From a virus (Duplodnaviria > Caudoviricetes), in IMG/VR virus record IMGVR_UViG_3300037067_003771, positions 1 to 64,000 of that record: 64,000 nt of DNA. One strand, 5' to 3'. The notes under the pieces are model-generated. The model saw only the letters and a list, made by a program, of their open reading frames with translations. It searched no databases and was not told the DNA's origin. Below, one piece after another: positions 3,555-49,551 of the stretch. Positions within the stretch are counted from its first letter, which is position 1. Each line of letters starts with the position of its first letter. The position numbers were made by a program, and so were the translations under genes.

Positions 3555-6251
3555 TTATGTACGTTCAGTATAACCCAATGACTCTAAATCTTTACTATCT
3601 AATCCTTGTTTTGATACATTAAATGTAAAAGATGCTTTTTTAGAAACAGCAAAACCAGACGGTTTTTGATAAATAACATCAAAATTAACACCAGCATCTC
3701 CTTTTAAATTGAATCTATTATATGTTGTATCATAAGTAAATATACCTTTAACATTAGTCCCATGATTTACTAGTGTACAATTTTCAGTAACATAATTATA
3801 AGAAACAGATTCAAATTTTAATGGGCCAGAAATTCCTTTAAATTTATCAATACTAAAATAAAATAAATCATATGGTATTGCAGAAGGTTTTCTACTATCT
3901 AATGTCACAATAAGTTTATTTAAATCTTCTTTTAAGTCACAAGTAATAACACCTTGTCCTGATATAGAATTATATCTTAATATAACATTCACAAAATTCA
4001 AAATAAAATTTTCACCAACTGATACATAAGGAACAATAACATTTGCGTTGTCATAAAAATCATTACCTTCAATTGTTATACTAAAATCTTGTCCTAAATA
4101 TTCTCCACCTGTATTTGTTAAAAATATATTGTTTGCATAAATTGTATTAACAGGAGAAATTTGTGACCCAATATTATTTATAGTACCTTCAATATCACCA
4201 CCATCGATAATGACACCATTACTTATTGATATTTTTCCCAATGCTGGTAAGTAAATATTATTAGCGTATAAATTATTTAAATATCCTTTATCAACAAAAA
4301 ATCCACCATCAGCACCTAAATTTGTTAAATATAATGTTCTCCATTTAGATGTTATACTTCCAAGATTTAATGTTGCTGTGTTTGGAATAAAACTAGTGTC
4401 GCACGTAAGAGCATTAGAACGCTCTGTGGACGATGATTTGGAATAACCTATGTGTTCTACCCATAACTTCTTATAGCCTCTATAAAGTGCCCCTATGTCA
4501 TCCCTATTGTGTTTTAAAGGAAGGACGTTACCATATGTGTGAATATTTCTACCGGCAACAAATAAAATGTCTTTATCTACTCCTAAATAATCAGAAATGT
4601 CAGTATCATCTTGTTCTGTCAAATTCCAAATTCTATTAATAATTTCTTCAGAAGTTGCCCAATCAACATCAGCATATTCATCATTTAATGTAATAAGATG
4701 AATATCATTTAAACTTCTTATTAATAAATCAGATTGGTGTGTTGCAGTTCCAACACCATCACTAGCACTTGTTCTATATGAAGAAATGTTTCCATAAAAA
4801 TATTTTGTGTTGGGAATTGATGTTAGATATTTATTATCACCATCAGTTGTGATCATTGCGGAACTATAATAAGGCCCACACATTACATCAGAATTATAAA
4901 ATCCAGCTTTATTATCACCAGCATTTATTTTAATATAGAACCCATCAAAGTTTTCACTTGTTAATATATCGTCAATTGAATCATCAAACATTTCTAATTT
5001 ATCCGATAATATTAAATGATTCCACCTATTTGATGCAGAAGAATTATATGTCCCCAATCCAAAATCTTTATCATATTTTGGAATAACAGAAAATACATTA
5101 TAAGGATTTAAATTAGAACATTGCCCATACATATCAAATGCAAAATCACCATCTGCATTTGTTCTCATTAATGTTCTTATTCTACTCTCATCTGTATTTA
5201 CATATTGCAAACATAATTGATCTAAATCAGATTCTTCACTTTGATTAACTTTATTTACTCTTTCAAAAGTAGAAACTAACATTTTCGCTACACCTGGAGA
5301 ATCCGCAGATAATATTGCAGACCTATCATCCAAACCTAATCTGTTGCTAACATAAACAGACCCATCATAAAGTAAACCATATTGTCCATCTTCATTTGAC
5401 ACTCTTTGCCAGTAATCTGCACTACTACTAAAGAAAATATCTTCAAAGTTTGCGCTCACCGCTTGACAATCAATTTGAAAATCTAATACAAATTCACCAA
5501 CAGAAAAATTTGTTGATGATGCAACAGAAGAATTTAATATTTGTGTTTCCGGAATTATTACTTGAGCAAAAAGTGTCGGTTCTCCTGTAACTATCATATC
5601 TCCTGTATATTTTACAGTAAAAAGTGCTAGTTTATTAAACTTAATTTGATTATTATTATCCGTTCTAACAACAACTTTAAAATTTGCTCTACTATCTCCT
5701 GATGTAACTACTTGTTGATATGATACACCTCGATATAAATAGTTTTCATCTGGATTTACTAATGATTGTGGGCCAAATGCGGCAGATGTTAACCCTGATG
5801 TCGCATAATAATCATCTGATAGATACCAAGATGCACCTAAAGAACCTGGAGACAAAACATCATTTGCTGTAAAATATGATCCCACAGCACTAGTATTATA
5901 TGTATTGATTTTTAATCCATTTTCATGAACATAATTTGTCAATTCATATCCAATACCTGATGTTGATATAGATTCATTTCCAGTATTGACAATATAATCT
6001 TCAGAATTTGAAATTGCATATGTTCCTGAACAATTCCACAATATTTCTCCTTGTGGATATAAGTCTGATGCTGATGTATAAAGACTAACATCATTAGATG
6101 CGGAATAATCAGCATTCACTAATCCCAATGATTGATCTAATCTCCAATCATAAATAGGAACATAATATTGAATACTTATAAACACACCTTCACTTGCGGC
6201 ACTATTTATTTCGTTCAATCCGGCACTTGTTATCATTGCATAATTTGGCAT
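3555..6251 (-). CDS. Baseplate-attached tail fibre protein
   Basis: N-terminal MITSAGLNEI resembles fibre/baseplate attachment domains; repeated shaft motifs (e.g. PNTATLNLGSITSKWRTLYL); follows the gp7-like gene. Confidence 0.65.
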   Translation of the reverse strand: MPNYAMITSAGLNEINSAASEGVFISIQYYVPIYDWRLDQSLGLVNADYSASNDVSLYTSASDLYPQGEILWNCSGTYAISNSEDYIVNTGNESISTSGIGYELTNYVHENGLKINTYNTSAVGSYFTANDVLSPGSLGASWYLSDDYYATSGLTSAAFGPQSLVNPDENYLYRGVSYQQVVTSGDSRANFKVVVRTDNNNQIKFNKLALFTVKYTGDMIVTGEPTLFAQVIIPETQILNSSVASSTNFSVGEFVLDFQIDCQAVSANFEDIFFSSSADYWQRVSNEDGQYGLLYDGSVYVSNRLGLDDRSAILSADSPGVAKMLVSTFERVNKVNQSEESDLDQLCLQYVNTDESRIRTLMRTNADGDFAFDMYGQCSNLNPYNVFSVIPKYDKDFGLGTYNSSASNRWNHLILSDKLEMFDDSIDDILTSENFDGFYIKINAGDNKAGFYNSDVMCGPYYSSAMITTDGDNKYLTSIPNTKYFYGNISSYRTSASDGVGTATHQSDLLIRSLNDIHLITLNDEYADVDWATSEEIINRIWNLTEQDDTDISDYLGVDKDILFVAGRNIHTYGNVLPLKHNRDDIGALYRGYKKLWVEHIGYSKSSSTERSNALTCDTSFIPNTATLNLGSITSKWRTLYLTNLGADGGFFVDKGYLNNLYANNIYLPALGKISISNGVIIDGGDIEGTINNIGSQISPVNTIYANNIFLTNTGGEYLGQDFSITIEGNDFYDNANVIVPYVSVGENFILNFVNVILRYNSISGQGVITCDLKEDLNKLIVTLDSRKPSAIPYDLFYFSIDKFKGISGPLKFESVSYNYVTENCTLVNHGTNVKGIFTYDTTYNRFNLKGDAGVNFDVIYQKPSGFAVSKKASFTFNVSKQGLDSKDLESLGYTERT

Positions 6252-6285: not shown

Positions 6286-7446
6286 TCAAATATAAAAATC
6301 TGCATAACCATCAGATTTTAAAACTAAATGTTTTCTTGTTCTAACATAAGGTCTAACATACAATGTTGCATAAGCATTAAATTTTGCAGTAACACCATCA
6401 AAAACTTGATTAATTGCTTTTATTGATAATATAGCTTTACCAATTATATTTTGTTTTTCGACATCGATTGAATAATTTCCACTCTCTTCTAAATCATAAT
6501 ACAGCTTAAAATGTGGCGTTGAAAAATAATTATCTGGAATATCAGATATATCTTCAACTAAAGATTCTATATTTAAATTTGTCGTTTGCCAATTGTCACC
6601 AAAACCTTTTTGTAATGCCTTTAATGTTTCCCAAAACTTTTGTCTATTATATTTAAATTCTTCCCATTGTGATAATATACATTTTATCTCTTGAATCTCC
6701 TGAAAACTCATCCCAGGTTTAATTAAATATGGAGATAATGAATCAATACTATTTATTCCTTGTTTGTCCATGTAATCTAATGTATAATAATAAACAAAAT
6801 CACCAACTAAACCAAAACTATACATTGCTAATTTTATTGCTGATCTCGTGCCTTTTATTTCATACCAAGTAGATAAATTATTCATTAAAAATCTTAAATA
6901 TTTTTTCTGATTTGCTTCCTCATTTCCACCAACATAATCATAACCCACATTATCTCTACTTAAATCAACATTATCAAATCCTAAATTAGAACCATAAAAT
7001 TGTATAAGTTCTATCGGTATATAATCCGGATCAACTAATTCTGTTAATCTTTGTATCTTTTCTAAAATAGATATTTCTTTTGTGTTTATTAAACAACTTC
7101 CTGACAAATCAATAATTTTTACATCATTGGCCGGTGTATCTAAACTTATTGCTGATGTTGCTGACACAATATAACTGTTATGCTCATATGAATGTTCAAC
7201 CGCTGATAATGAACACGCAGATGTCATGCAATATGTTATGTCTAAATCTTGAGCACTTAAACCATATGAACGATCTCCATCATACATCTCATTTAAATAT
7301 TCCTCAAAAACTTCAACTAATTTTTCTGTGTCCGTGTTGTTAATATATTCAGGAAGATAAGATACTAAATCTATCTGTTTATCTTGACCAATTCTAGTAA
7401 CTTCTGGCCCATATAATGTAATAAACGATCTTTTTATTTCAGCCAT
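6286..7446 (-). CDS. Baseplate wedge protein (T4 gp7 / P2 gpI-like)
   Basis: LVSYLPEY; LVDPDYIP..LI..YG..LG; WYEIKGTRSAIKL (KGT motif). Confidence 0.7.
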   Translation of the reverse strand: MAEIKRSFITLYGPEVTRIGQDKQIDLVSYLPEYINNTDTEKLVEVFEEYLNEMYDGDRSYGLSAQDLDITYCMTSACSLSAVEHSYEHNSYIVSATSAISLDTPANDVKIIDLSGSCLINTKEISILEKIQRLTELVDPDYIPIELIQFYGSNLGFDNVDLSRDNVGYDYVGGNEEANQKKYLRFLMNNLSTWYEIKGTRSAIKLAMYSFGLVGDFVYYYTLDYMDKQGINSIDSLSPYLIKPGMSFQEIQEIKCILSQWEEFKYNRQKFWETLKALQKGFGDNWQTTNLNIESLVEDISDIPDNYFSTPHFKLYYDLEESGNYSIDVEKQNIIGKAILSIKAINQVFDGVTAKFNAYATLYVRPYVRTRKHLVLKSDGYADFYI

Positions 7447-8779
7447 TATAATTCCTCATGTTATCAAAACTATTAAAAGTATTAAAATTTTTAATAGTTT
7501 TATTTATAAGGTTAATTCTTATTGGGTTCAACACAAACCCTCTATCCAATAGATCAGAAATAATCTTTTCATTTTGGATTACTTTTCTTAGGATATTAAT
7601 ACTACCATTAACATCAGCATTGATTAATTTTCCAGTATTACTTTGAAATAAACCACGTTTAATTCTTTTACCTAAATACTTTTCATGTTTCTTAATTGGT
7701 TCTAAAGCCAAGCTATCGCATTTAGAAGTATAAGATTCTTCATGAGTGATGACATTGATACCGACTTCATCAGCTTTGTATTTAATCATTGAAATTAATT
7801 TAGCGTGAGGAATATTAACAAAATTTTGATTATTTCTTTTGCCGATATTAATTTTATTTTTCCAATTTTTATTATAACCAATTACGACATTTTTAATTTT
7901 ATGTTCAATGCAATAGTTAATAATAAATCTTGAGGTTTGATGTAAATAATTCTGTATCTGATTGTTTCTTTTAAATGTTAATCTATTAATCTTGTTTGAA
8001 GTTCCTTTATCACCAACATATTTTTGAAGTTTAGATTTAATTTTATTATAGAAGTGATTTATGGATTTAATAATTTTACCATTTATAATGAAAGTTTTAC
8101 CTACATTATTTACACATGTAGCTAGATTATTTAATCCTAAATCTATACTTAAATAATTATTATTATTAAAATCTAATTCTTGTGGAGTTATGGTATACAC
8201 AACTTCAATTACATAACATGTAGCTTGAGGAATTATTCTAACTTGATTAATATTTTTAACTTTTGTCTTTAATGGTTTTAAATTAACCATTTTAGGAAAA
8301 TTAATATTACCATCATTAATTTTTAAAACTTGTGATGTAAATATTACAACATTTCTGCCTCCTGTCTTGTGTTTATACTTGGGTAAATTTGGTATACCTT
8401 TACATTCATTTGGATGTACATGATAATCCTTTATAGATTTAAAAAATGAATTCCAATTTTTATATAATAATTTTATTATTTGCTGTGAGGTCTGTGCTGG
8501 TAATGACCTATAATCCTTTTGATTTGTTTTAGCTAAATGTGTTGTTAATTTATATTCTTTAATCTTATAATATATTTTTTCTATCTCTTCATTGTCTTTA
8601 ATTTTCTTTATTGTAAAACTTTCAATCAAATTAATTATTTCAGGATCAAGATTATCATGACGGTTTATATATACCTGTCTAAGAATATAATTACAATAAT
8701 TATATAAATTCTTAGATAAAAAACACAATTCATCTAAATTTTTATCATTAATCTTTATGTGGCGTTCTGCTCTTTGCAT
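7439..8779 (-). CDS. tnpB: RNA-guided endonuclease TnpB (IS200/IS605 family)
   Basis: SKNLYNYCNY; LPAQTSQQ; RuvC-I SIDLGLNNLA; VIGYNKNWK; EESYTSK; RuvC-III INADVNGSINILRK. Confidence 0.93.
   Translation of the reverse strand: MQRAERHIKINDKNLDELCFLSKNLYNYCNYILRQVYINRHDNLDPEIINLIESFTIKKIKDNEEIEKIYYKIKEYKLTTHLAKTNQKDYRSLPAQTSQQIIKLLYKNWNSFFKSIKDYHVHPNECKGIPNLPKYKHKTGGRNVVIFTSQVLKINDGNINFPKMVNLKPLKTKVKNINQVRIIPQATCYVIEVVYTITPQELDFNNNNYLSIDLGLNNLATCVNNVGKTFIINGKIIKSINHFYNKIKSKLQKYVGDKGTSNKINRLTFKRNNQIQNYLHQTSRFIINYCIEHKIKNVVIGYNKNWKNKINIGKRNNQNFVNIPHAKLISMIKYKADEVGINVITHEESYTSKCDSLALEPIKKHEKYLGKRIKRGLFQSNTGKLINADVNGSINILRKVIQNEKIISDLLDRGFVLNPIRINLINKTIKNFNTFNSFDNMRNYNG
7501..7508 (-). promoter_or_regulatory. 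Possible late promoter inside the tnpB 3' end
   Basis: TATAAATA ~55 nt upstream of the gp7-like start. Confidence 0.45.
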
Positions 8780-39060: not shown

Positions 39061-40008
39061 TCATAAAATATAATTAATATCTTCATTATCAATGACAATC
39101 ATAGCCGGAAAACTTTTTATGCCTAAATAATAAAGTGCAACATATCTATGAGCACCTTCAAGAATATACGGCCCATCTTTATCAACAACTATAATCAATG
39201 GAGATATTTGTTTATTAATTTTTATTTTTTCTGCTAAACTTCTACTTTTATCAAAATCTGATTTTGCATAAAATATTGTATTTGGTTCAGAAAAATTATC
39301 CATTTTTACTTCTCTAATGTTTGGTAATATTTCATAATCATATAATGTAGATTCTATTGATGATTGATTTGGAATATTATCTAAAATTGTTAAATCATTT
39401 AATGTGTCTGTTTTTATTATTGGATATAGTAAATCATAATTATTGTCTGCTTCGTTTATGTTATCAGAATTTTTATTGAACTTCCCATTGTTTCCTGTTG
39501 CTGATTTTATTTGATTTGGTAAAAAGGTAATGTATATATTTCCACTCTCATCTCCACCCCTAACAATAATTCCATCGTTCTTATTTTTTTTAGCATTACT
39601 AAAAAATATATCAATATTACTATCAAAATAATTTGTTGCATTTCCCTTTACTTCTCTCACAATTGGATTTTTTATTTTTAAATAGACTGGTTTTATGTTT
39701 GGTGAATCTCCCATTCTAACATTGTAATCATAATCTTGTTTATCTGTATAAAAATCAGCCTCATCAGTATTATCAGTAAAAAACTGACCTTTTTTAACAA
39801 ATTTGTGATTTACACCTGATTTATCCTTACTAAAAGAATTAAATTCTTGTCTTGTTCCATGATAAACAACTAAAGGTTTTCCATCTTTATCAACAACTTT
39901 AGACGCAGAGTTAGAATTATGTTCCCAATCACCAAACCAATCCTTAAATTCCTTTGTATATATTTGTGGATTTTCATTCTCTGTAAAATAAAATGTATTA
40001 AAATCCAT
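39061..40008 (-). CDS. ART-PolyVal-like domain fused to ParB/Srx-like domain
   Basis: FKDWFGDW..SKVVDKDGKPLVVYHGT...FFTD...PVYL...DGII...PNQIKSATGNNG; C-terminal PLIIV...ILEGAHRYVAL. Confidence 0.75.
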   Translation of the reverse strand: MDFNTFYFTENENPQIYTKEFKDWFGDWEHNSNSASKVVDKDGKPLVVYHGTRQEFNSFSKDKSGVNHKFVKKGQFFTDNTDEADFYTDKQDYDYNVRMGDSPNIKPVYLKIKNPIVREVKGNATNYFDSNIDIFFSNAKKNKNDGIIVRGGDESGNIYITFLPNQIKSATGNNGKFNKNSDNINEADNNYDLLYPIIKTDTLNDLTILDNIPNQSSIESTLYDYEILPNIREVKMDNFSEPNTIFYAKSDFDKSRSLAEKIKINKQISPLIIVVDKDGPYILEGAHRYVALYYLGIKSFPAMIVIDNEDINYIL

Positions 40009-40134: not shown

Positions 40135-41202
40135 CTAATCAGAAAAATAAAAAATCGGTTTATCTTCATCGTCAATCTTATATTTTTCATCTAATGTTTT
40201 AACAGAAATATCTCTATCATCAAAAAAATCAGTAGTAACAAAAAACAAACCCCATAATAAAGAAGTGACGTGATCGTCCGGAGTAGTTTTAGTTTCAGAC
40301 CTAAAGACATTAGGAGATATCTCAACATATTTCGATAATTCATTTACAGTTTCCTTATCGACAAGATGTAACCATTTATTTTCTAAATATCGTTTCAAAT
40401 TTAAATTTGCTTTTAATTTGCTAGTTTTTGTTGACCTAATACCCAAACCAACTTTATCACAATTTAAAATATTTTCATTTTCATATTCATGCCATATCAC
40501 ATTGGCTGTCTCACCACCTTCAGAATTATTTTCAATCATCATATAACCACCATTATAATATTCTGATATAGCAATACACACTTGAGCATAATCATGGGTA
40601 TCTATTCTATTATTCATATAAACTGCAACTTGTCTTATATCTTGCTCACTTATAACTCTCAAAACTTGAATAACCGAATTGTCTTTTCCTGTTCCCTTTG
40701 CAGTATCAATACCCAATATGTATAACTGCCCTTCTATTGGATGCTCATATATACGAAATAAACCATTCCATTTATAATCGATTGGTAATTGAAATTCAAT
40801 TGTTTCTAGTGTATCAGTTTCTATTAATGTGTTTGATGAACCTAAAAATTTACAGTTATGACTATTTATACCATTCACATAATAAGAATTATCATTAGAT
40901 TTAACATCTAAAATATCATATACAAAATATTCATCATCCAATAAATTAATATCTATTATTTCAAAATCTCCTTGTTCTGTTTCTAAATAATCTCCAAGAT
41001 TTAAATTTTTTGCATATATTTCTTTATCATCAACTATAAATATATGATTCATTGAAACATCTAAAAGATTTTTATTTGTTAATACGATTCTTAATATTTT
41101 TTCTTTTTCTCCAAATTTACCAATACCATCAAAATCAACAAAACCGTGTTTTGTAAATATATCATATTTTTTATTATACACTATTTTATTTTTCATTTTC
41201 AA
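40135..41202 (-). CDS. terL: Terminase large subunit, C-terminal part (C-intein plus nuclease domain)
   Basis: 116-aa IntC ending YYVNGINSHN, then CKFLGSSNTLI; YILGIDTAKGTGKDNS; MIENN; DDHVTSL. Confidence 0.92.
   Translation of the reverse strand: MKMKNKIVYNKKYDIFTKHGFVDFDGIGKFGEKEKILRIVLTNKNLLDVSMNHIFIVDDKEIYAKNLNLGDYLETEQGDFEIIDINLLDDEYFVYDILDVKSNDNSYYVNGINSHNCKFLGSSNTLIETDTLETIEFQLPIDYKWNGLFRIYEHPIEGQLYILGIDTAKGTGKDNSVIQVLRVISEQDIRQVAVYMNNRIDTHDYAQVCIAISEYYNGGYMMIENNSEGGETANVIWHEYENENILNCDKVGLGIRSTKTSKLKANLNLKRYLENKWLHLVDKETVNELSKYVEISPNVFRSETKTTPDDHVTSLLWGLFFVTTDFFDDRDISVKTLDEKYKIDDEDKPIFYFSD
40855..41202 (-). other. C-terminal fragment of a naturally split intein (IntC)
   Basis: Block B-like VSMNH; VYDILDV; SHN/C junction. 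Confidence 0.88.
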
Positions 41203-42187
41203 TTATTTCTTTTAAAATATTTTTAAATTCATATTCACACAATTCATGCTTAAGACAATTAATACTTCTTCCACAAACACACAAATTTTTTAAATCTGCA
41301 ACATCTTCGATTGGAATTTTATTCAAAAAACCATAATGTATACTTATTTTATGATCTATTGTTGGTTGACGTTTATTTGTATTTACATTTTTATGGTGTT
41401 TCATATTTATATATTCATCATTAGTTATTAATCTTTCTCTAGTATAATAATCTTTTCCGTCCCAATTAGAAAATAATTCATTTCTTTTTTCTTCTGTCAA
41501 ATAATAAACTTCTTTTTTGTATTTCTTAAATCCTTTATTTCTATTTAAGGTATTTTCTTTTTTATTATCATGATATGATTTTAATTTTTCTTTTATTTCA
41601 TTTATTTTAAATACTGAGTCCACACCATATTTTTCTAAACATGTTTCTTTTCTCTTATTTAATGCAGATAATACATTTTCTTCTGACCAATATAATTTTC
41701 TTTTTTCATTAATTACATCTTTTCTATCATTCAATGCTTCCCAACGTTTATCATAACACTCTTTTGTTATTAAATTTGTTTTAACGCCAAACCGTTCAAA
41801 ATTAGATTTTTCTATTTTGTGTTTTATTTCTTCAGATTTTGATATATGATCCACACCATATTTTTCTAAACATGTGTCTTTTCTTTTTTGTTTTTCTTTT
41901 TCAATATCTCTAATTAAAAAAGATTCGCTAATTCTATTTGCAACATAATCAGAAGATTTTGCACATTTAAAAGAACAAAATATTCTATATCCTCTTCTAA
42001 AATCATTATATACTGTTTCTTTTCCACATTCTAAACAAAAACCTTCACCATCTTTTCTAAAATATTTATCATAATAGTCTTTAATATTAATATTGTGTTC
42101 TTTTCTTAAATGAAATTGACTAAATTGTTTTAATTCATATTTTGTTTCCTGATTACAAATTTTACAATACATTCCCATATCATACAC
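41186..42187 (-). CDS. Free-standing putative HNH-type homing endonuclease between the terL halves
   Basis: CKIC/CLECG zinc motifs; TCLEKYGVD repeats; C-terminal DYYT...PTIDHKISI..GF...NLC...N..K. Confidence 0.75.
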   Translation of the reverse strand: MYDMGMYCKICNQETKYELKQFSQFHLRKEHNINIKDYYDKYFRKDGEGFCLECGKETVYNDFRRGYRIFCSFKCAKSSDYVANRISESFLIRDIEKEKQKRKDTCLEKYGVDHISKSEEIKHKIEKSNFERFGVKTNLITKECYDKRWEALNDRKDVINEKRKLYWSEENVLSALNKRKETCLEKYGVDSVFKINEIKEKLKSYHDNKKENTLNRNKGFKKYKKEVYYLTEEKRNELFSNWDGKDYYTRERLITNDEYINMKHHKNVNTNKRQPTIDHKISIHYGFLNKIPIEDVADLKNLCVCGRSINCLKHELCEYEFKNILKEIIENEK

Positions 42188-42217
42188 TCCTTTTTAATTT
42201 ATATAAATACTATAAAT

Positions 42218-42276
42218 AGTGGGACAGCAAGAATACACTCGCTTGTTGCTGAAATGCAATTCAGCTAACCTCTACT
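42218..42276 (+). ncRNA. Putative structured RNA/DNA element, copy A
   Basis: GGGACAGCAAG-loop-CTTGTTGCTGAAA...TAACCTCT; follows two plus-strand TATAAATA boxes; similar to 49476-49537. Confidence 0.45.
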
Positions 42277-42363
42277 TAAATCTTTATATAATTTTTCTAT
42301 TTTTATTTTTTTTATATTTTTTGTTAATTTGTTTCTTATAATAACAGTTCCATTTTTAAAACA
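42265..42363 (-). other. N-terminal fragment of a naturally split intein (IntN, 32 aa)
   Basis: CFKNGTVIIRNKLTKNIKKIKIEKLYKDLSRG-stop after QEYG. Confidence 0.85.
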
Positions 42364-43632
42364 ACCGTATTCTTGGTTGAAGCGATTTACATCTCCATTA
42401 AAATCTCGAATCACCTTCTTCTTCCATTCTTCATCTCTCTTCGGATGATCCTGCCAATTAACTTTTATAGGATAAAAATTATTGGTATTTCTAACTGCAC
42501 CAATCCAATAATCATAATAATGATTCATACCAACTGGTGTCGAAGAAATTATAACCTTTGAACTTTTTCCGGAAGACAACACAGGCATGGTAGCAGTAAT
42601 AAATTCCTCAGCAATATGTTCTTTTACTTTTGCAAATTCATCAAGATATAATAATGAAATCGCCTCACCAGAAATTGAATCATTGGATGTTGTTGCTGCT
42701 ATAACTCTATTTCCATTTTCTAATAACAATGATTCTTTATTCCAACCATCTTGTTTTACACCAACTTGTAACCACATCGGAAGATTTTCATAAGACATTT
42801 TTAATTCACGTAATATTTTTAATGCTGTTTTTTCTTTATTTGCAAGTATAGCCACATTTTTTTCTTTATTAAATAATATATAATGGAGCAAATAAACCAT
42901 CATAGTAGTTGTATTGTGTGATAAAATTCCATTAGAATAAAATAAATGTTTTTTTGAATTAACAGTAACATCATACATATTTTTCGATTTACATTTTAAT
43001 TTTTTAACATATAATATGTTTTCAATACCATTTTCAGTTATTATCTTATCGCCAATTTTCAAATCTTTAACATAAACAGTTTCATATGTATCTTTCACTA
43101 CTAAATGTTCATCTGCACATTTCAATGAAAAGGATTTAGTTTTTAATTTCCACACACTATATTTTATTGTTTTGTGAACTTGAGTAATATCAACATATCC
43201 ATCGTCAGTTAATATTTCCCATTCGTTGACCAATTTACTTTTTATTATTTTATTTTTAATTATATTAACATCATTTATTATATTATTGTGTGTTTCAAAA
43301 AAGTCTTTTATTACTATTTCTTTTATTTCACCAGTTTTTTTATTTCTTATTTTTATTTTTGAATTTTCAAAAATACATTTTCCGCTCTGGCGGGGTATAT
43401 TCATAATTACACCAGACCTACTATCTGGGGGGCACATTATAACTTTTAATATTTTTTTTTGAAATTCATATAATGCGATTTTAACTCTACCATAATCAAT
43501 GGTGTTAATAAAAACAAAATTTTCTGCAAAATAAATTATGTCTTCTTTACATTTAATATACTCATCGATCATTTCTTTAGTATATTCAATTTGTTCATTT
43601 TCGCCACGGAGATTTTTATTCTTTTCCCACAT
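42265..43632 (-). CDS. terL: Terminase large subunit, N-terminal ATPase part (cis mini-intein plus N-intein)
   Basis: YEFQ; Walker A PRQSGK/TT; ILANK; Walker B LLYLDEFA; ISSTPVG; RFNQEYG then the N-intein. Confidence 0.93.
   Translation of the reverse strand: MWEKNKNLRGENEQIEYTKEMIDEYIKCKEDIIYFAENFVFINTIDYGRVKIALYEFQKKILKVIMCPPDSRSGVIMNIPRQSGKCIFENSKIKIRNKKTGEIKEIVIKDFFETHNNIINDVNIIKNKIIKSKLVNEWEILTDDGYVDITQVHKTIKYSVWKLKTKSFSLKCADEHLVVKDTYETVYVKDLKIGDKIITENGIENILYVKKLKCKSKNMYDVTVNSKKHLFYSNGILSHNTTTMMVYLLHYILFNKEKNVAILANKEKTALKILRELKMSYENLPMWLQVGVKQDGWNKESLLLENGNRVIAATTSNDSISGEAISLLYLDEFAKVKEHIAEEFITATMPVLSSGKSSKVIISSTPVGMNHYYDYWIGAVRNTNNFYPIKVNWQDHPKRDEEWKKKVIRDFNGDVNRFNQEYGCFKNGTVIIRNKLTKNIKKIKIEKLYKDLSRG
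42913..43377 (-). other. Cis mini-intein (155 aa) in terL Walker A
   Basis: GK|CIFENS...CADEH...MYDVTV...YSNGILSHN|TTT; no endonuclease domain. Confidence 0.9.
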
Positions 43633-43643
43633 TATAAATTCTT

Positions 43644-43901
43644 TCAGTTATCAAACAATAAATTATTATTAGATGCCGATATTATAGAAAAACATTTATT
43701 TTTGTTTGAAAAATAATATTTTCCGTTTTTCAAAATTATATAATTCACAGAATCCAGCATCATGTAACTCAAACCTTCTTGGACTATCTTAACAGAGCAA
43801 TAGTCATCAGAAGAATAAATCACATCAATATTATCTTGAGCAAATAATGAAAACATAAACAGAACAATTAGTATTAATTTTTTCATATTATTTATTTTCA
43901 T
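43644..43901 (-). CDS. Small protein with signal-peptide-like N-terminus
   Basis: AGGAG RBS; MKKLILIVLFMFSLFA/QD. Confidence 0.55.
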   Translation of the reverse strand: MKINNMKKLILIVLFMFSLFAQDNIDVIYSSDDYCSVKIVQEGLSYMMLDSVNYIILKNGKYYFSNKNKCFSIISASNNNLLFDN

Positions 43902-43920
43902 CAAACTCCTTTCTAAATTT

Positions 43921-44352
43921 TTATATTTCAATTGAAATGGGCTTAAACATTTCAAAATTTAAAATTCTTATTTCTGATTCAGATTGATTACCAGAATCCA
44001 TTATTGCATCATATCCGTCATTTTTTAATTGTTGCATATCATCAGGAAAATAAAATTCATCTATACCATCACCATTTGTATCTATAGTTTTAAATTTTGA
44101 TTTTGGATCAACTTTTATTTTCAATATATTTTTGCAGCCAAAAACTGATGAATATCGCTTTGCTATGTTTTTATCTAAAGATGTAGATAATCCAAAATTC
44201 CCACCACCAGTAGATGGCAATTTGAGTTTTTCTTCTGAAGATAACATGTTAAAATTTTTATATAAATTAGAAATGTTATCACAATCTCCACCATGATAAA
44301 CATATTCTGGAATTTCAGATATATAATTATCTAATTCATTTAATGTAAACAT
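43921..44352 (-). CDS. ADP-ribosyltransferase-fold-like protein
   Basis: VYHGG; GLSTSLDKNIAKRYS; GYDAI; SESEIRI. Confidence 0.55.
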   Translation of the reverse strand: MFTLNELDNYISEIPEYVYHGGDCDNISNLYKNFNMLSSEEKLKLPSTGGGNFGLSTSLDKNIAKRYSSVFGCKNILKIKVDPKSKFKTIDTNGDGIDEFYFPDDMQQLKNDGYDAIMDSGNQSESEIRILNFEMFKPISIEI

Positions 44353-44417
44353 ATTCTATCTCGTCATTCTTTACGATTTAATTGGTATTTTATTTTTAAT
44401 TCGTCAATATTAACGAA

Positions 44418-45080
44418 TTAAATCTCCATGTCTATTATAAACTGTTTTGGTAAATTATTTTTTAATCTCTGTTTATCTTTTTCATCTAATTGTTCAAATC
44501 GTTTAACAAAAAATATTTTATATAAACCATAAAACGGTTCTAAAATGTCATTAATATTATGTTTTTTACTTTTAATTATTTCAATTAATTTATCAACCCA
44601 ATCTGGTTTTTCCATGTAAATGTCATAAGTAAAACCATCAATTGACAGATGAGGCATTTCTGTTATTAATTCTTCATTGATATTATCAGAATTTTTATTA
44701 ATGCTTTCTTTACCGTCTTTTAATTTTGTTATCATATTGTTACTATACAAATCGTGATGTGTGTATACTAAATATTCATTTCCAGAAACTCCATTAAGTC
44801 CTGCTAATTTTTGATTATTAACAAATAAAACCCTATCCCCATCACTATCTATTAATTCAGAACCAAGTTGATTTTTTGGTAGTTCTATTTTATAAACATA
44901 ACCAGTTTTTCCTGCATATTGCTTTGCTAAATCCTTATTATCAGTCCATGTGCTATATCCATTTGGTGCATCTGTAGCATTAATAGAATAGTTTGGATCA
45001 AATCTTTTTTCTAATCCACGAAATAAAGTAATTGTTTTTTCTCTGTTATTCTCTGTAAAATAATGTTCTATAAAGTTCAT
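44418..45080 (-). CDS. ADP-ribosyltransferase-fold-like protein with extra C-terminal module
   Basis: TLFRGL; YSTWTDNKDLAKQYA; NEYLV; then INEELITEMPH junction. Confidence 0.5.
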   Translation of the reverse strand: MNFIEHYFTENNREKTITLFRGLEKRFDPNYSINATDAPNGYSTWTDNKDLAKQYAGKTGYVYKIELPKNQLGSELIDSDGDRVLFVNNQKLAGLNGVSGNEYLVYTHHDLYSNNMITKLKDGKESINKNSDNINEELITEMPHLSIDGFTYDIYMEKPDWVDKLIEIIKSKKHNINDILEPFYGLYKIFFVKRFEQLDEKDKQRLKNNLPKQFIIDMEI

Positions 45081-45082
45081 AT

Positions 45083-45490
45083 TTATTCTCTTATTCTTAT
45101 TTGATCTTTATTCAAAATAAATCCATCAAAACTACCATCTTTATTCTTTAATATCACCCCATCATAACCCAAACCTTCTAGTTCACCTATTGAGTAATTA
45201 TCATATTCTTTCCAGCCAGCAGGATTTTTAATATTAACATAAAATTCCATTATGTATTTTGTTCCTTGTGCTCCTGATTTCCCTGACACAATAGAATCTT
45301 TATTTGAAGTAAACCAGAAAACACCTTGTGACCCCTTTTTCATGTCGATCTTTTTAAATTTATCATTAGTTCCATGATAAACAACCAATGGATTTCCTTG
45401 TTCATCAACAATTTTAGAATCTTTAAACCAAGATTTAAAGTCATCTGATTCTGTTTGATTTTCTATGAAGTAAAAATTTGAGAATTTCAT
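45083..45490 (-). CDS. ART-PolyVal-like protein
   Basis: Probable start MKFSNFYFIE; FKSWFKDSKIVDEQGNPLVVYHGT; FWFTS; GYDGVI; QIRI. Confidence 0.7.
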   Translation of the reverse strand: MKFSNFYFIENQTESDDFKSWFKDSKIVDEQGNPLVVYHGTNDKFKKIDMKKGSQGVFWFTSNKDSIVSGKSGAQGTKYIMEFYVNIKNPAGWKEYDNYSIGELEGLGYDGVILKNKDGSFDGFILNKDQIRIRE

Positions 45491-45810
45491 ATCTTTAATA
45501 TATCCTTCATCCAAGGTTCTATTTTTTCTATCCAATTTTTTAATGCCTGTTTTCTATGTTTCAAAGCAATTCTATCTTTTTTTGTGTCTTTATCAATAAA
45601 AGAATTCATGAGTCTTTCTTCATCTTGTGGAATTTTAATCGTTTCTTTATCATAAATTTTTTTCAACATATGATATTCATCAGAATCAACTTCATCTGCT
45701 CTGTAAATAACAGAATTCTTTTCTGTGCCGATAATTAAATCTTTATCATCTATAGAATTTTTTACAGAATCATAATCCATGTAATCTTCTAATTCCTCTA
45801 ATGTAACCAT
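45487..45810 (-). CDS. Hypothetical protein
   Basis: 107-aa ORF in the operon. Confidence 0.55.
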   Translation of the reverse strand: MVTLEELEDYMDYDSVKNSIDDKDLIIGTEKNSVIYRADEVDSDEYHMLKKIYDKETIKIPQDEERLMNSFIDKDTKKDRIALKHRKQALKNWIEKIEPWMKDILKI

Positions 45811-45811
45811 A

Positions 45812-46366
45812 TTATTTCTTTTTCCTATTCTCTAAATCGTCAGAATCATCTATTTCAAAATCTGCTTCAATTTTATTAAACTCTGATTTTTCACTTGCAG
45901 CCAAAATCATTTCTGCCAATTGATTTGATGATAATGCGATTTTGTCATTTTGACCTAATTCCGATAACGTCTTCTTTGAATTTTGTTCTAACTTTATTTT
46001 AATAATAGATTCATTTAAATTTCTTAATTCTTTCATTAACATAGTCAGTGAATTTACTAATCCGCCAAAAACTTCATACATTCTAGCTTCAGACCCAATT
46101 TTAATATCAGATTCTAATCTCTCTAAAACACTTTTACTTGTCCACATCAAAGATTTAATTTCAGTTTTTAAATATTCTTCATCTTCAATTCTAATATTAC
46201 TTTTTATTTCATCTTTTTTTAATTCTAAATCCTTTATTTCATCTTGTAATTCCTGAACTTCATTTTTAGATGCTGTAATTAAAGAATTCTGTTTGTCCTC
46301 TTTATATTCTGTATTAAATGCAGTATCTAATCCTTCAAATGCTTCTTTATTCAAATCTTCTGACAT
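45812..46366 (-). CDS. terS: Terminase small subunit, T4 gp16-like
   Basis: ARMYEVFGGLVNSL resembles gp16 PRxxEVF; between gp15 and terL. Confidence 0.7.
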   Translation of the reverse strand: MSEDLNKEAFEGLDTAFNTEYKEDKQNSLITASKNEVQELQDEIKDLELKKDEIKSNIRIEDEEYLKTEIKSLMWTSKSVLERLESDIKIGSEARMYEVFGGLVNSLTMLMKELRNLNESIIKIKLEQNSKKTLSELGQNDKIALSSNQLAEMILAASEKSEFNKIEADFEIDDSDDLENRKKK

Positions 46367-46375
46367 GAACCACTC

Positions 46376-47233
46376 CTATTCTATCTCCGTAAACCAGACA
46401 TATTCTTTATCTTCAGTATCCGTAGCACTAACGCTTCCACTCAAAACATAATCAGCCGACAACGGTAACACAGCACTTGTATCTAATATATCACCCGCAG
46501 ATGTTTGATAAGCAGAAGTATAATAACTTTCTAATGATGCCGAAGTATCATAATTATAATATTTTTTATTAATAACTTTAATAACTTTAGAATAAGTAAA
46601 TGGTCTATACATAAATCCTTGAACAGTCAAATTAATACTTGCATTTACCATTCTAGTATCATTTTCATTTAAATCATCAGAAAATTCAGGATTAACGCCG
46701 TCCATAGAAACAGGCAAATCTCTCTCAATATTTAAAAAAGAAAATTCCTTTACTCTTAATACTAATTTTGGATTAAAATAAGGTAAAATATTCTCTATTA
46801 TTTGAGAAAAATATGTAAGATGATCGGTCATTATGTACAATGTATAATTAAAATCATATGGTGCTGGTTGATAATCTGATATGACCTGATCTAAATCGAT
46901 TGTAGATAGTCCTAGAGACTCCTGAAACCAGTATCGCCATTGATTAGTACCAGTAGCCCTATCTGCATTATAAGCGATTCCATTGAACACTAGGGCCATT
47001 CTAGGCAATTGTAGATAATATCTCTGACCTTGCTCCACATTGTCGGCATCATAATAATGTTCTTCTATTCTATCTTTATGATATTTCTCATTTGGAGCAA
47101 ATGTAATAGGTACTGTCTTTTCAGAAATAATATTAGCAGACGAATCATATTTAACAACTTTCATATCATTAAATAAATCCAATAATGCCGTTGTTATTCC
47201 CTGAAATGTTCTAGGATAATAATATGTTAACAT
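46376..47233 (-). CDS. Tail sheath stabiliser/terminator, T4 gp15-like
   Basis: LFND; VPITFAPNEKY; LPRM; PAPYDF; QIIENILPYFNP. Confidence 0.9.
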   Translation of the reverse strand: MLTYYYPRTFQGITTALLDLFNDMKVVKYDSSANIISEKTVPITFAPNEKYHKDRIEEHYYDADNVEQGQRYYLQLPRMALVFNGIAYNADRATGTNQWRYWFQESLGLSTIDLDQVISDYQPAPYDFNYTLYIMTDHLTYFSQIIENILPYFNPKLVLRVKEFSFLNIERDLPVSMDGVNPEFSDDLNENDTRMVNASINLTVQGFMYRPFTYSKVIKVINKKYYNYDTSASLESYYTSAYQTSAGDILDTSAVLPLSADYVLSGSVSATDTEDKEYVWFTEIE

Positions 47234-47302
47234 GCAATATGTTGCACTTTCTTATTAAAATTAGCTGAAAATATAAACAGAATAATCATTAAGTGCAAAA
47301 TA

Positions 47303-47803
47303 TTACACTTCCGCAAACTCTAAATCATCTAAAGAAAACTCCGAATCCGTATTGATGTCTTTATCGTCAACATCCTCAACATTTTTCTTTATTGTTTCTA
47401 AATCATCTTCTTTTGGTTCCAATGCTTCATCTGGAAATGGTGTCTCTTCACCGTCAATTATTGCTGGATTCAAATCATAACCCATCTCTTTTAATTTATT
47501 CATAAGCCAAGCATTTACATTCCCTAATGAATAATTCGTTTCTTTTCCTTCAAGATTAGTTGTGATTTCTGCATACACATCACCAAAATCATACATAGAA
47601 TTGACTGCATCAACCGGAGTACCATCAATTTTTTTAATCTTAACATCGGCTATCTTATTTTCTCCATCAACCAACTCAAATGAAACTTGAGTTTCTGAAT
47701 TATAATCAACAGGATTTAAACTATAATTTTCATATAAATAACTCTCTGAAATATAATCATCCAACTTTTCTAATATTGTTTTTTCTAAATCAAATAATGA
47801 CAT
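47303..47803 (-). CDS. Acidic hypothetical protein
   Basis: 166-aa ORF with AAGGA RBS. Confidence 0.6.
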   Translation of the reverse strand: MSLFDLEKTILEKLDDYISESYLYENYSLNPVDYNSETQVSFELVDGENKIADVKIKKIDGTPVDAVNSMYDFGDVYAEITTNLEGKETNYSLGNVNAWLMNKLKEMGYDLNPAIIDGEETPFPDEALEPKEDDLETIKKNVEDVDDKDINTDSEFSLDDLEFAEV

Positions 47804-47911
47804 AAAATTCCTTTCTATTTATTTTTCAAATACAAGTTTACTTCTTTTTTTAATTCTCTTTTCCAAGCGGAATTATGTTGTTTTGTGGTCATTCCTTTAT
47901 CTTTTTATCAT

Positions 47912-47944
47912 CTATCTCCAAATTAATATGAAATGTGGAGATAG
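47912..47944. terminator. Intergenic hairpin, possible terminator
   Basis: CTATCTCCA / TGGAGATAG 9-bp inverted repeat. Confidence 0.35.
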
Positions 47945-47956
47945 TTAATTGTTTTA

Positions 47957-48280
47957 TTAAACTGAAAATTCTTCATCCTTCTTTTGTCCATACATATTAG
48001 TATCACATTCCTCAACTTCAACATCAACAACATCTTCCTTATTTTCTTCTTCACCAGATTCTTTTGCCATCAATAAATCTTTTAACATAGTATAAATTTT
48101 ATTTTCTAACTCTGAATACTCAATTCCAATCTCTTCAGCAAAAGCATGAACCTTCTCATCATCAATAGGCTCATCTTGTGTGAAGAAAGCTACTATTTTT
48201 GCATTCATTTCTTCTTGCTCTTTGTTTATTTCCATCTCTTCGTTCTCTTTAATGTAATCTTGAAATGTACGTTTTTTCAT
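47957..48280 (-). CDS. Acidic hypothetical protein, possible internal head protein
   Basis: MKKRTFQDYIKENE leader. Confidence 0.6.
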   Translation of the reverse strand: MKKRTFQDYIKENEEMEINKEQEEMNAKIVAFFTQDEPIDDEKVHAFAEEIGIEYSELENKIYTMLKDLLMAKESGEEENKEDVVDVEVEECDTNMYGQKKDEEFSV

Positions 48281-49449
48281 TTTACTTCTCCTTTTAAATT
48301 TAAAAAATTAATTAGTTTTTCTTCTATTATGTTTTCCTTTAAATCTGTATATGTTAATTCAAGAAAGCCCTTATTAGTATTTATACAAAATTGTTTTTTA
48401 ATCGTGTCTGATTGTTGGGTTTTTTCAAAATTTTTAGATGCTCTACTTTCAGAAATTCCACCAAATTTTACTGGTTGATAATGTTGTTGTCCTTGAAATT
48501 CAATACAAATATTATATTGGGGCAAATAAAAATCAAATGGTAATGTGTATTTTGTTCCTCGACAGTCATCAAATCTAAACTGTGGTTTATATTTTATTTC
48601 ATATTTATCTAATAATTTTACTAATTCCTTTTCTCCTTTTGATTTTTTACAATAAGGACAACCATTACCCGCTAAATGATTTGTTGGTAGCTGTTTAAAT
48701 ATTTTTTCACATTTATTACATCTCATTTTTACTTTTACATTTTGATTAACATATTCTGATATATATTCAAAATCATCACCGTGAATCTCTTTTGCTTTTC
48801 TAAAAAATATTAATGCGTATTCTTCATATTTATCTTTATTCATATTTTCAAAAGAACATCGTGGACATTTATGTCCGTGTGTATGATTAAATGGTGTTTG
48901 CCAAAATATTCCATGTTCTTGACATTTTATTGGGATATTATTGGTTGAATTTATATAATAGTCTTCTGACAGTTCATAATTAAATCTATCACCATACAAT
49001 TCTTTTGCTTTCATTAAAAAATATTCAAATGATAATGTATGACCTAATCTTATTTTATTATTTCTACATTTTGGACAACCTTGACCACGCAAATGTGCTC
49101 CTGGCAATTGCCAAAAATACCCATGATCTAATTCATTAGTACATTTTATTTCTACTTTTATCTCTGAGTCTATATATATTGTTTTGTCATATTCACAATC
49201 ATCATGGATATCTTTTGCTTCTTTAATAAAGTCTTCGGTTGTTTTATGTAATCCGTGACATTTAGGACATCCCTGTTTTCTATTTATATGCTTATATGGT
49301 GTTTGATAAAATATATAATCATGCTTAATACAATATATTGGAAGTTTTGTATCACATCCTTTATATTCCTCAATTAAATGATAAGAATATTTATCACCAT
49401 GAATTTCTTTTGCTCTAATTTTAAACTCTTCTAATTTCAATTTTTTCAT
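48277..49449 (-). CDS. Putative homing endonuclease: repeated Zn-binding modules plus Vsr-like PD-(D/E)XK domain
   Basis: Four C..H/C...H..G.GCP.C repeats; SKGE; LPFDFYLP..ICIEFQGQQHY; D..K..FC. Confidence 0.8.
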   Translation of the reverse strand: MKKLKLEEFKIRAKEIHGDKYSYHLIEEYKGCDTKLPIYCIKHDYIFYQTPYKHINRKQGCPKCHGLHKTTEDFIKEAKDIHDDCEYDKTIYIDSEIKVEIKCTNELDHGYFWQLPGAHLRGQGCPKCRNNKIRLGHTLSFEYFLMKAKELYGDRFNYELSEDYYINSTNNIPIKCQEHGIFWQTPFNHTHGHKCPRCSFENMNKDKYEEYALIFFRKAKEIHGDDFEYISEYVNQNVKVKMRCNKCEKIFKQLPTNHLAGNGCPYCKKSKGEKELVKLLDKYEIKYKPQFRFDDCRGTKYTLPFDFYLPQYNICIEFQGQQHYQPVKFGGISESRASKNFEKTQQSDTIKKQFCINTNKGFLELTYTDLKENIIEEKLINFLNLKGEVK

Positions 49450-49475
49450 TATATCTCCTTGTTAGAATTTTTAAA

Positions 49476-49537
49476 AAGAGGTCATCCTTACTTCAACAAG
49501 GTTTTCAGGAAACAAGTTGCAACTTGCTGTCCCTCTT
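49476..49537 (-). ncRNA. Putative structured RNA/DNA element, copy B
   Basis: AAGAGGGACAGCAAG-TTGCAA-CTTGTTTCCTGAAA...GATGACCTCTT in the 5' leader of the endonuclease gene. Confidence 0.45.
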
Positions 49538-49551
49538 ATTATTCTTATTTG

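Follow-up and report, generated by a model that had tools for sequence, protein, structure and literature searches.

Why do two homing endonuclease genes (HEGs) of unrelated families, in one phage genome, each have the same short structured sequence beside their 5' end? The question is raised by a 64,000-nucleotide stretch of DNA (positions 1 to 64,000 of IMG/VR record IMGVR_UViG_3300037067_003771, hereafter the window), which is part of a 128-kb record from an uncultured T4-like myovirus, about 56% complete, whose TerL shares at most 35% identity with that of its nearest cultured relatives. A first-pass annotation of the window had described two copies of an element of about 60 nt, here called copy A and copy B, and had read it as either a mobility site or an RNA motif that goes with endonucleases (regulator, ribozyme or guide scaffold). 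We find that both copies belong to a covarying family of 60-70-nt, three-way-junction RNAs associated with HEGs, the reality of which is confirmed, and we propose that the element is probably a portable RNA that limits translation of the adjacent nuclease gene, in cis or in trans.

The two copies lie where the annotation had placed them. The window contains the 11-mer GGGACAGCAAG exactly twice, at 42221-42231 (+) and 49523-49533 (-); if one mismatch is allowed, 0.21 matches are expected and only 2 of 100 shuffles reach two, and the whole pattern is found at these two places alone in the 128-kb record. A covariance model (CM), R1, which was built from 18 family members including both window copies, matches copy A at 42216..42275 (+) with 54 bits (E 6e-12) and copy B at 49475..49538 (-) with 56.8 bits (E 1e-12), and has no other match in the record at E<=1. 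Read along its own strand, copy A is GGGACAGCAAG-aatacactcg-CTTGTT-GCTGAAatgcaaTTCAGC-TAACCTCT and copy B is GGGACAGCAAG-ttgcaa-CTTGTT-TCCTgaaaaccttgttgaagtaAGGA-TGACCTCT. Among the blocks that the two were thought to share, GGGACAGCAAG stands; CTGAAA falls in P3, a variable arm, and is coincidental, and the 3' block ACCTCT becomes U-N-A-C(C/U) in the family. A hammerhead-like core around CTGAAA was rejected because this sequence is not conserved in the family.

A covarying three-way-junction RNA family

Members were gathered by pattern scans of IMG/VR and JGI metagenome contigs, which also gave many chance matches. Together with R1, these scans yielded about 30 distinct members in viral and metagenome contigs, so the element does have homologues beyond the window. 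Members score 37-71 bits with R1, against at most 28 bits for chance block matches. Scans of whole contigs with R1 recovered diverged copies that the patterns had missed, bringing the totals to 6 copies in the 204-kb G001 and 4 in the 78-kb G003; the variation seen among the CM-only copies of these two contigs depends less on the choice of patterns. Since most members were ascertained with patterns that demand the conserved blocks, part of the apparent conservation is ascertainment; the 8 copies found by the CM alone still keep the blocks and the junction.

Covariation counts and positions were taken from an alignment of 30 distinct sequences (A5). Standard pairs fill 95.8% of its cells, compared with 70.7% in column shuffles and 33-51% with slid partners, and compensatory two-sided changes are seen in 13 of 17 pairs; the three-way junction that had been drawn from two copies is thus supported by covariation across 30 members. 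The first paired region (P1) joins at least three flanking bases and (G/A)G to C(C/U) and at least three further bases; it is variable in sequence and always paired, with G-C at its top, where GG/CC alternates with AG/CU. The joining segment between P1 and P2 (J1/2) is GAC, that between P3 and P1 (J3/1) is U-(A/U/G)-A, and no base separates P2 from P3. P2 reads AGCAAG(N)/(N)CUUGUU, that is, an A-U pair, a non-Watson-Crick pair, further pairs and a closing G-C, with the compensatory variants AGUGAG/CUCAUU, AGUAAG/CUUAUU, AGCAGG/CCUGUU and AGUAGG/CCUAUU. No sequence has a Watson-Crick pair at 12.38 of P2, where G.U occurs 27 times, U.U twice and A.C once. P3, a hairpin whose sequence is free, has G-C or U-A as its closing pair. 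Invariant across the 30 members are G7, G8, A9, C10, A11, G16, C34, U39, U78, A80 and C81. GAC facing UAA is similar to the UAA/GAN tertiary motif, a similarity that we take as a lead.

Both window copies follow this plan. On the + strand, copy A forms P1 from 42218-42222 and 42269-42273, has J1/2 (GAC) at 42223-42225, forms P2 from 42226-42231 and 42242-42247 around loop L2 (42232-42241) and P3 from 42248-42253 and 42260-42265 around loop L3 (42254-42259), and has J3/1 (UAA) at 42266-42268. Copy B, on the - strand, forms P1 from 49532-49536 and 49477-49481, J1/2 (GAC) from 49529-49531, P2 from 49522-49528 and 49511-49517, the base of P3 from 49507-49510 and 49485-49488, and J3/1 (UGA) from 49482-49484.

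The view that this is not a described family is upheld: scans of the window and 14 copies against Rfam 15, at gathering thresholds and at E<=10, gave no relevant match. With the Rfam int-alpA model RF02996 (threshold 35.8 bits), a scan of 14 copies at E<=10 was negative, as were scans of the complete records G000, G001 and G003. No int-alpA instance was found in E. coli K-12 CP4-57, P22, 151 + 41 Gammaproteobacteria or four jumbo-phage records, and tblastn of AlpA against phages returned nothing. Given the RF02996 negatives we do not file the element under int-alpA; it may nevertheless work like int-alpA. Elsewhere, GGGACAGCAAG with just one other block as a pattern gave mostly chance matches, and a pattern scan of one genome per species in 185,579 prokaryote species gave chance matches only. 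CM scans of T4, Pelagibacter phage HTVC008M, Synechococcus phage S-H38, Stenotrophomonas phage Moby, Dickeya phage LIMEstone1 and a 735-kb uncultured phage found no convincing member, and neither megablast nor blastn of the region yielded a useful match among phage records. A literature search for the 11-mer found unrelated primers only, and keyword searches of the literature found no description of the motif.

Small ribozymes are common near phage genes, and the size, three-way junction and conserved junction bases of the element resemble theirs. It is nonetheless most improbable that the element is a small self-cleaving ribozyme, or an RNase processing site, that trims a HEG leader or a small RNA: no Rfam ribozyme family matches even at E<=10, junctions of 3, 0 and 3 nt fit no known core, and there is no mark of a cleavage site.

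Loops that match the neighbouring ribosome-binding region

The neighbour of nearly every member is a homing-endonuclease-like gene, an overwhelming enrichment among the members examined. One loop per locus complements the translation initiation region (TIR) of this neighbour: a 6-10-nt perfect match falls on the Shine-Dalgarno (SD) sequence, the spacer or the start codon in 18 of 19 loci, and the exception, L156, would instead pair with a small hairpin that precedes the SD. Measured against a 25-nt TIR window, the mean longest match to the locus' own gene is 7.32 nt, compared with 4.73 ± 0.25 nt when loops are permuted among loci (0/20,000 permutations reach the observed value) and 4.54 nt with shuffled loops.

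The loci fall into two main arrangements. In the leader form, the element has the sense orientation and precedes the start codon by 26-60 nt, and L3 (L2 in L349) matches the SD or start. Copy B is of this form: its CCUUGUU, in the P3 arm and loop (49495..49501, -), is the complement of AACAAGG (49457-49463), which lies over the ribosome-binding site (RBS) in the TIR of endonuclease B (49447..49463, -; SD AAGGAG 49455-49460; AUG 49447-49449), so the complementarity reported by the first-pass annotation is indeed present. Its relatives pair CCCCUC with GAGGGG (L011), CCUCUAA with UUAGAGG (L105), CCUUAUC with GAUAAGG (L173), CCUCCU with AGGAGG (L311) and CUCCUAU with AUAGGAG (L346). In the divergent form, the element stands head to head with the gene and a long L2 is antisense to SD and spacer. 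Here belongs copy A, in which AUACACUC (42233..42240, +), in L2, is an 8-nt perfect complement of GAGUGUAU (42182-42189) in the TIR of endonuclease A (42179..42192, -; SD AAGGAG 42187-42192; 8-nt spacer 42179-42186). Other divergent pairs are AUUGCUCC/GGAGCAAU in L042 and 10-mers in L321 and L305, the last lying just upstream of the tnpB start codon. The earlier description of copy A as antisense to an HNH gene was imprecise: it lies 38 nt upstream of the HNH start codon, on the opposite strand, and its antisense overlap is with the last codons of the N-terminal terL gene. In both window copies the complementarity covers the SD; the predicted loop-TIR duplex of copy A (8 nt) has -9.5 kcal/mol against -4.6 +/- 1.6 for shuffled loops, and the loop-SD duplex of copy B (7 nt) has -10.4 kcal/mol against -3.6 +/- 1.5, a value that 0/300 shuffles reach.

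Independent validation comes from five extra copies in G001, which were found by the CM alone and played no part in forming the idea of complementarity. In 5/5 of them L2 complements the TIR of the copy's own divergent gene, and the loop covaries with the four bases of the spacer that follow GGAG (CAAU/AUUG, CCGU/AUGG, UGGU/AUCA, CUAU/AUAG and UAAG/CUUA). G003 presents a third geometry, in which 4 copies, L156 and three that the CM alone found, have an L2 that complements the loop of a small hairpin directly beside the SD; judged by the paired sequences, this is a putative covarying kissing-loop pair and not direct SD pairing. The hairpins (at L156, L373, L375 and L377) stand 30-55 nt after the motif, with matches such as GCGCUAA/UUAGCG and CUACUAA/UUAGUAG.

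The anti-SD CCUU(G) of copy B is also complementary to an internal (U)AAGG, with which it can form P3 (49485-49501, -). Pairing with the internal AAGG or with the real SD would give two exclusive helices, and hence a possible switch. These exclusive states, together with junction and P2 positions that stay invariant across the 30 members while P1, P3 and the loops are fully randomised and with the non-canonical pair 12.38, are what a ligand- or protein-responsive switch might show, in which an aptamer or protein site at the junction decides whether the anti-SD loop is presented, in place of a constitutive brake; riboswitches combine a conserved aptamer core with an expression platform over the SD, and the element has a conserved core and a putative anti-SD. 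We regard such a switch as unlikely. Neither a candidate ligand nor a candidate partner came to light, no metabolic theme links the target genes, a trans-acting divergent form would be unusual among riboswitches, and the conservation of the core is in part a product of the block-demanding patterns.

The neighbouring genes come from several nuclease families. DUF7487 proteins stand beside copy A, L325, the L121 group and L349; GIY-YIG with NUMOD3 beside L042, L311, L373, L374, L377, L378 and L379; HNH_3 with NUMOD4 beside L105; NUMOD1/3 beside L156; DUF4379 or Vsr-like proteins beside copy B, L340 and L302; DUF723 beside L321; and TnpB beside L305, where the member lies head to head with an IS605-type TnpB gene (3648-5022). 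The exceptions to nuclease neighbours are a DNA methylase (L011) and a DUF5055 protein (L173). In the window, endonuclease A (41186..42178, -) is a free-standing protein of 330 aa with DUF7487 repeats (Pfam PF24308, 5.8e-17; PHROG 3339 'homing endonuclease', 6.5e-15) and, in its translation, an HNH-like D-H...N...N motif at the C-terminus. Endonuclease B (48277..49449, -), also free-standing, has 390 aa (Pfam DUF4379, 5.4e-13; PHROG 559, 5.8e-77; PHROG 9084 'homing endonuclease'), and its translation shows repeated treble-clef Zn modules followed by a C-terminal Vsr-like D...E.xG..H motif. PHROGs labels both genes as homing or HNH endonucleases; a sequence search of solved structures with the two nucleases found no match.

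Late promoters, strands and the proposed mechanism

T4-type late-promoter boxes border the divergent copies. On the motif strand, TATAAATA (≤1 mismatch) is found 2-6 nt before the CM match, which is 4-8 nt upstream of P1, in 15/17 divergent copies and 3/11 leader copies, compared with 6.6% of windows in the background; the other strand carries it 3-8 nt past the motif in 14/17 and 4/11, respectively, again against 6.6%. Copy A has two exact TATAAATA boxes directed into it (42202-42209 and 42211-42218, +) and a late-promoter-like box, TATAAAGA (42282..42289, -), directed back into it and on to the endonuclease gene. Because these boxes converge at the borders of the element, both strands of the divergent copies would be transcribed late, each from its own border. 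A scan for sigma-70 promoters found promoter-like sites no more often than in shuffles.

Given these boxes and the loop matches, we infer that the element would be transcribed, would pair in vivo with its target and would repress it. A constant scaffold accompanies free-standing HEGs of uncultured T4-like and other phages, with one loop re-written at each locus to complement the initiation region of the HEG next to it, be it SD, spacer or start. In the leader form, as in copy B, the RNA would be part of the HEG mRNA leader, where a CCUUGUU-AACAAGG pseudoknot would hide the RBS in cis. In the divergent form, as in copy A, TATAAATA just before P1 suggests a separate small transcript, whose L2 segment AUACACUC would pair in trans with GAGUGUAU of the HEG mRNA, and the second late-type promoter, on the other strand, would place the complement of the element in the HEG transcript, making a sense/antisense pair. 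The acting strand of copy A is here presumed from the family rule that the loop is complementary to the TIR. In both forms the outcome would be throttled or delayed translation of a potentially toxic nuclease. An endonuclease-associated RNA motif is supported, and among the roles listed by the first-pass annotation 'regulator' fits best, with the loop as a locus-specific 'guide' aimed at the RBS; the ribozyme and mobility-site roles found no support in this analysis.

The folding of the two strands bears on this proposal in different ways in the two forms. Leader copies prefer the sense strand (-189 vs -156 kcal/mol summed; 6 G.U vs 3 A.C), while the stems of divergent copies are almost all Watson-Crick (291 Watson-Crick, 1 G.U and 2 A.C). 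Such stems, and the equal folding of both strands, fit two-strand transcription of the divergent copies. They could also suggest that the element is a sense/antisense transcription module, acting through interference or RNase III-sensitive double-stranded RNA, or a branched terminator that shields the HEG cassette from transcription of its neighbours, with the loop matches being secondary. The convergent TATAAATA boxes exactly at both borders of divergent copies, the avoidance of G.U in their stems (1 in 304) and the T-rich 12 nt past P1 (57% vs 33% background, with runs of at least four T in several members, copy B included) agree with this account. However, it leaves unexplained the locus-specific covariation of loop and TIR and the leader copies that lack flanking promoters, and a simple terminator scan found none at either window copy and P1 is short and often AT-rich. 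We therefore think it quite unlikely.

Several observations weigh against a translational brake as we propose it. The two strands of the divergent form fold alike (-362 vs -370 kcal/mol summed), which, with the Watson-Crick stems, means that the acting strand of this form is not settled by sequence, and what the HEG strand carries in the loop is the TIR sequence itself and not its complement. In HEG leaders of the T-even type, a late promoter inside or after the structure would let late transcripts escape; copy B has no TATAAATA-like box between element and RBS by which repression might be relieved; such a box is present in some relatives (L173, L311 and L346). The predicted pairing of 7-8 bp is short, and the TIR match of one locus, L156, is of 5 nt only. 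The regulatory logic would not be uniform, since the cis form would repress by default and the trans form only upon synthesis of the small RNA. The phage has another HEG-like gene, its third, just outside the window, which is without the RNA element even with CM filters off. Finally, junction and P2 are strictly conserved, beyond what a simple antisense role would need, which hints at a further partner or a tertiary fold. The third gene (G000:C1:66298-67446, -; 299-1447 of L392) encodes three DUF4379-like zinc modules and has no leader, beginning 6 nt past the upstream gene.

A tentative extension, which we consider rather unlikely as a whole, is that a conserved partner docks at junction and P2, be it a small molecule, an RNase or an RNA-binding protein of ribosome or host, so that the element would be a modular guide platform. 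The exchangeable loop of 7-10 nt would then aim a fixed scaffold at the RBS of any mRNA, in cis or in trans, and selfish nuclease cassettes would spread the platform from phage to phage.

The split terminase intein and known leader structures

Copy A stands in a terminase locus that holds two inteins. The gene for the N-terminal part of TerL (42265..43632, -) has a complete mini-intein in the Walker A loop (42913-43374, -; PRQSGK|CIFENS...ILSHN|TTTMM) and ends in a 32-aa N-terminal intein fragment (IntN; 42268-42363), and this contiguous mini-intein and the split one together make the two. The gene for the C-terminal part (40135..41202, -) begins with a C-terminal fragment (IntC) of about 116 aa (40855-41202, ending SHN|C), followed by a C-extein with the nuclease domain. 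At the junctions, QEYG|CFKNGT...LSRG* has Cys as the first residue after the N-extein, and IntC ends ...INSHN|CKFLGS. The IntN stop codon is supplied by copy A, as the annotation had stated: TAG is CTA at 42265-42267, in which C closes P3 and UA comes from J3/1, and the 3' strand of P1 is complementary to the last IntN codons (S-R-G). The 3' end of the free-standing endonuclease A gene, which lies between the IntN and IntC genes, overlaps the start of terL-C/IntC by 17 nt (41186-41202); overlaps of 6-69 bp are reported for fractured genes (PMC2677866). Directly downstream of terL-C, a gene at 39061-40008 (-) encodes an ART-PolyVal ADP-ribosyltransferase domain (Pfam 1.3e-24). A short IntN (C...LYKDLSRG), a longer IntC and a HEG between them liken this locus to atypically split TerL inteins of the AceL-TerL / GOS-TerL type, a likeness that concerns the host gene and not the RNA.

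The order IntN, HEG, IntC places HEG and element as a cassette exactly at the split. A relative (L366) has an uninterrupted 527-aa TerL (...RQIGK|T... and ...QEFD|CRFVGA) and no motif; with IntN and IntC flanking the cassette, this fits the suggestion that arrival of the cassette split the intein, and we put the order of events forward as a proposal. A group I intron fragment was rejected as an identity for copy A: the strand is wrong for terL, it is an intein that is split, and no Rfam intron matches. In the L121 group, the same cassette lies in opposite orientation between two intact genes, which indicates that the element belongs to the HEG and not to the host gene. The flanking genes of the L121 cassette (7143-8495 and 4872-6167, both -) are unrelated and share a C-terminal peptide (...SLEDLFA and ...SLEDLFT), and the downstream one has a DSGG motif similar to that of tRNA-guanine transglycosylase/DpdA. 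Elsewhere, in L372 (1440-1600), an RNA copy, late promoters and a matching SD lie beside an 11-codon remnant of the divergent gene; here the element has outlived its nuclease.

That the element always accompanies a HEG, in either orientation to the flanking genes (copy A against the L121 group), is kept beside a HEG remnant in L372 and is absent from the relative with an uninterrupted terL might also be expected of a DNA-level cassette element with no RNA function, such as a cruciform, the end of a cassette or a site of recombination or homing, conserved because homing spreads the cassettes. This is very unlikely, however, since unrelated nuclease families would not be expected to have one target, P1 and P3 stay paired although their sequences are randomised, RNA is indicated both by the conserved non-canonical pair and by the preference of leader copies for the sense strand, and complementarity to an RBS is meaningful in RNA only.

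Translational repression by a portable RNA has its closest known parallel in T-even phages, where leader structures that sequester the RBS control I-TevI, I-TevII, I-TevIII, segB and Aeh1 mobE (PMC2988022). Those leaders likewise lie directly upstream of HEGs of T4-type phages, free-standing or intron-borne, pair an RNA structure with the SD, include T4 late promoters TATAAATA in the arrangement and presumably serve to limit or delay the nuclease (PMC2988022). In contrast, they are simple idiosyncratic hairpins with no sequence common between genes, whereas here a conserved three-way-junction scaffold is found with at least six unrelated nuclease families, with only the loop re-written, and the divergent form would act in trans. 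The T-even structure is placed in the leader of the coding strand, as in copy B; for copy A the GGGAC strand runs opposite to the gene, and the leader would contain its complement alone. A portable translational brake, the most economical reading of these data, would extend the known T-even rule of RBS masking at HEGs.

Fractured genes offer a second parallel, with hairpins in 15/16 HEG leaders and TATAAATA in 10 (Dassa et al. 2009, PMC2677866). Two conserved, mutually complementary motifs occur in these leaders, and the hairpin persists after HEG loss (PMC2677866), as the element does in L372. The setting of copy A, a split intein with an intervening free-standing HEG, is also that of fractured genes, where the HEG is Vsr-like or GIY-YIG (PMC2677866). 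Unlike the element, the hairpins are on the HEG strand, and no three-way junction, anti-TIR loop or divergent transcription is mentioned (PMC2677866). Compared by description, this RNA family probably underlies the 'conserved hairpins' of fractured genes.

Antisense RNAs (P22 sar, plasmid CopA and type I antitoxin RNAs) resemble the divergent form, as proposed here, in being small structured RNAs with their own promoter, beside or opposite a target, and the loop would, as theirs do, pair with the ribosome-binding region and block a harmful or tightly timed product. Their complementarity, however, stems from overlap with the target, whereas the 8-nt anti-TIR loop of copy A lies outside the overlap and appears to be kept by selection on a conserved scaffold that is presumably transcribed. 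What would be new, as read from these loci, is the RNA family with its putative locus-specific anti-TIR loop; RBS masking of HEGs is already known.

HEG expression must suffice for spread and yet spare the phage, and only ad hoc hairpins that hide the RBS were known before; the element is a portable, sequence-conserved scaffold common to at least six unrelated nuclease families. It also marks cassette borders, helping to reconstruct the arrival of the nuclease cassette at the split terminase intein. If the proposed repression is correct, a phage RNA that recurs and is uncatalogued would acquire a function, an explanation would be at hand for the conserved 'hairpins' at fractured-gene loci, and phages would provide a compact natural design for programmable translational repression.

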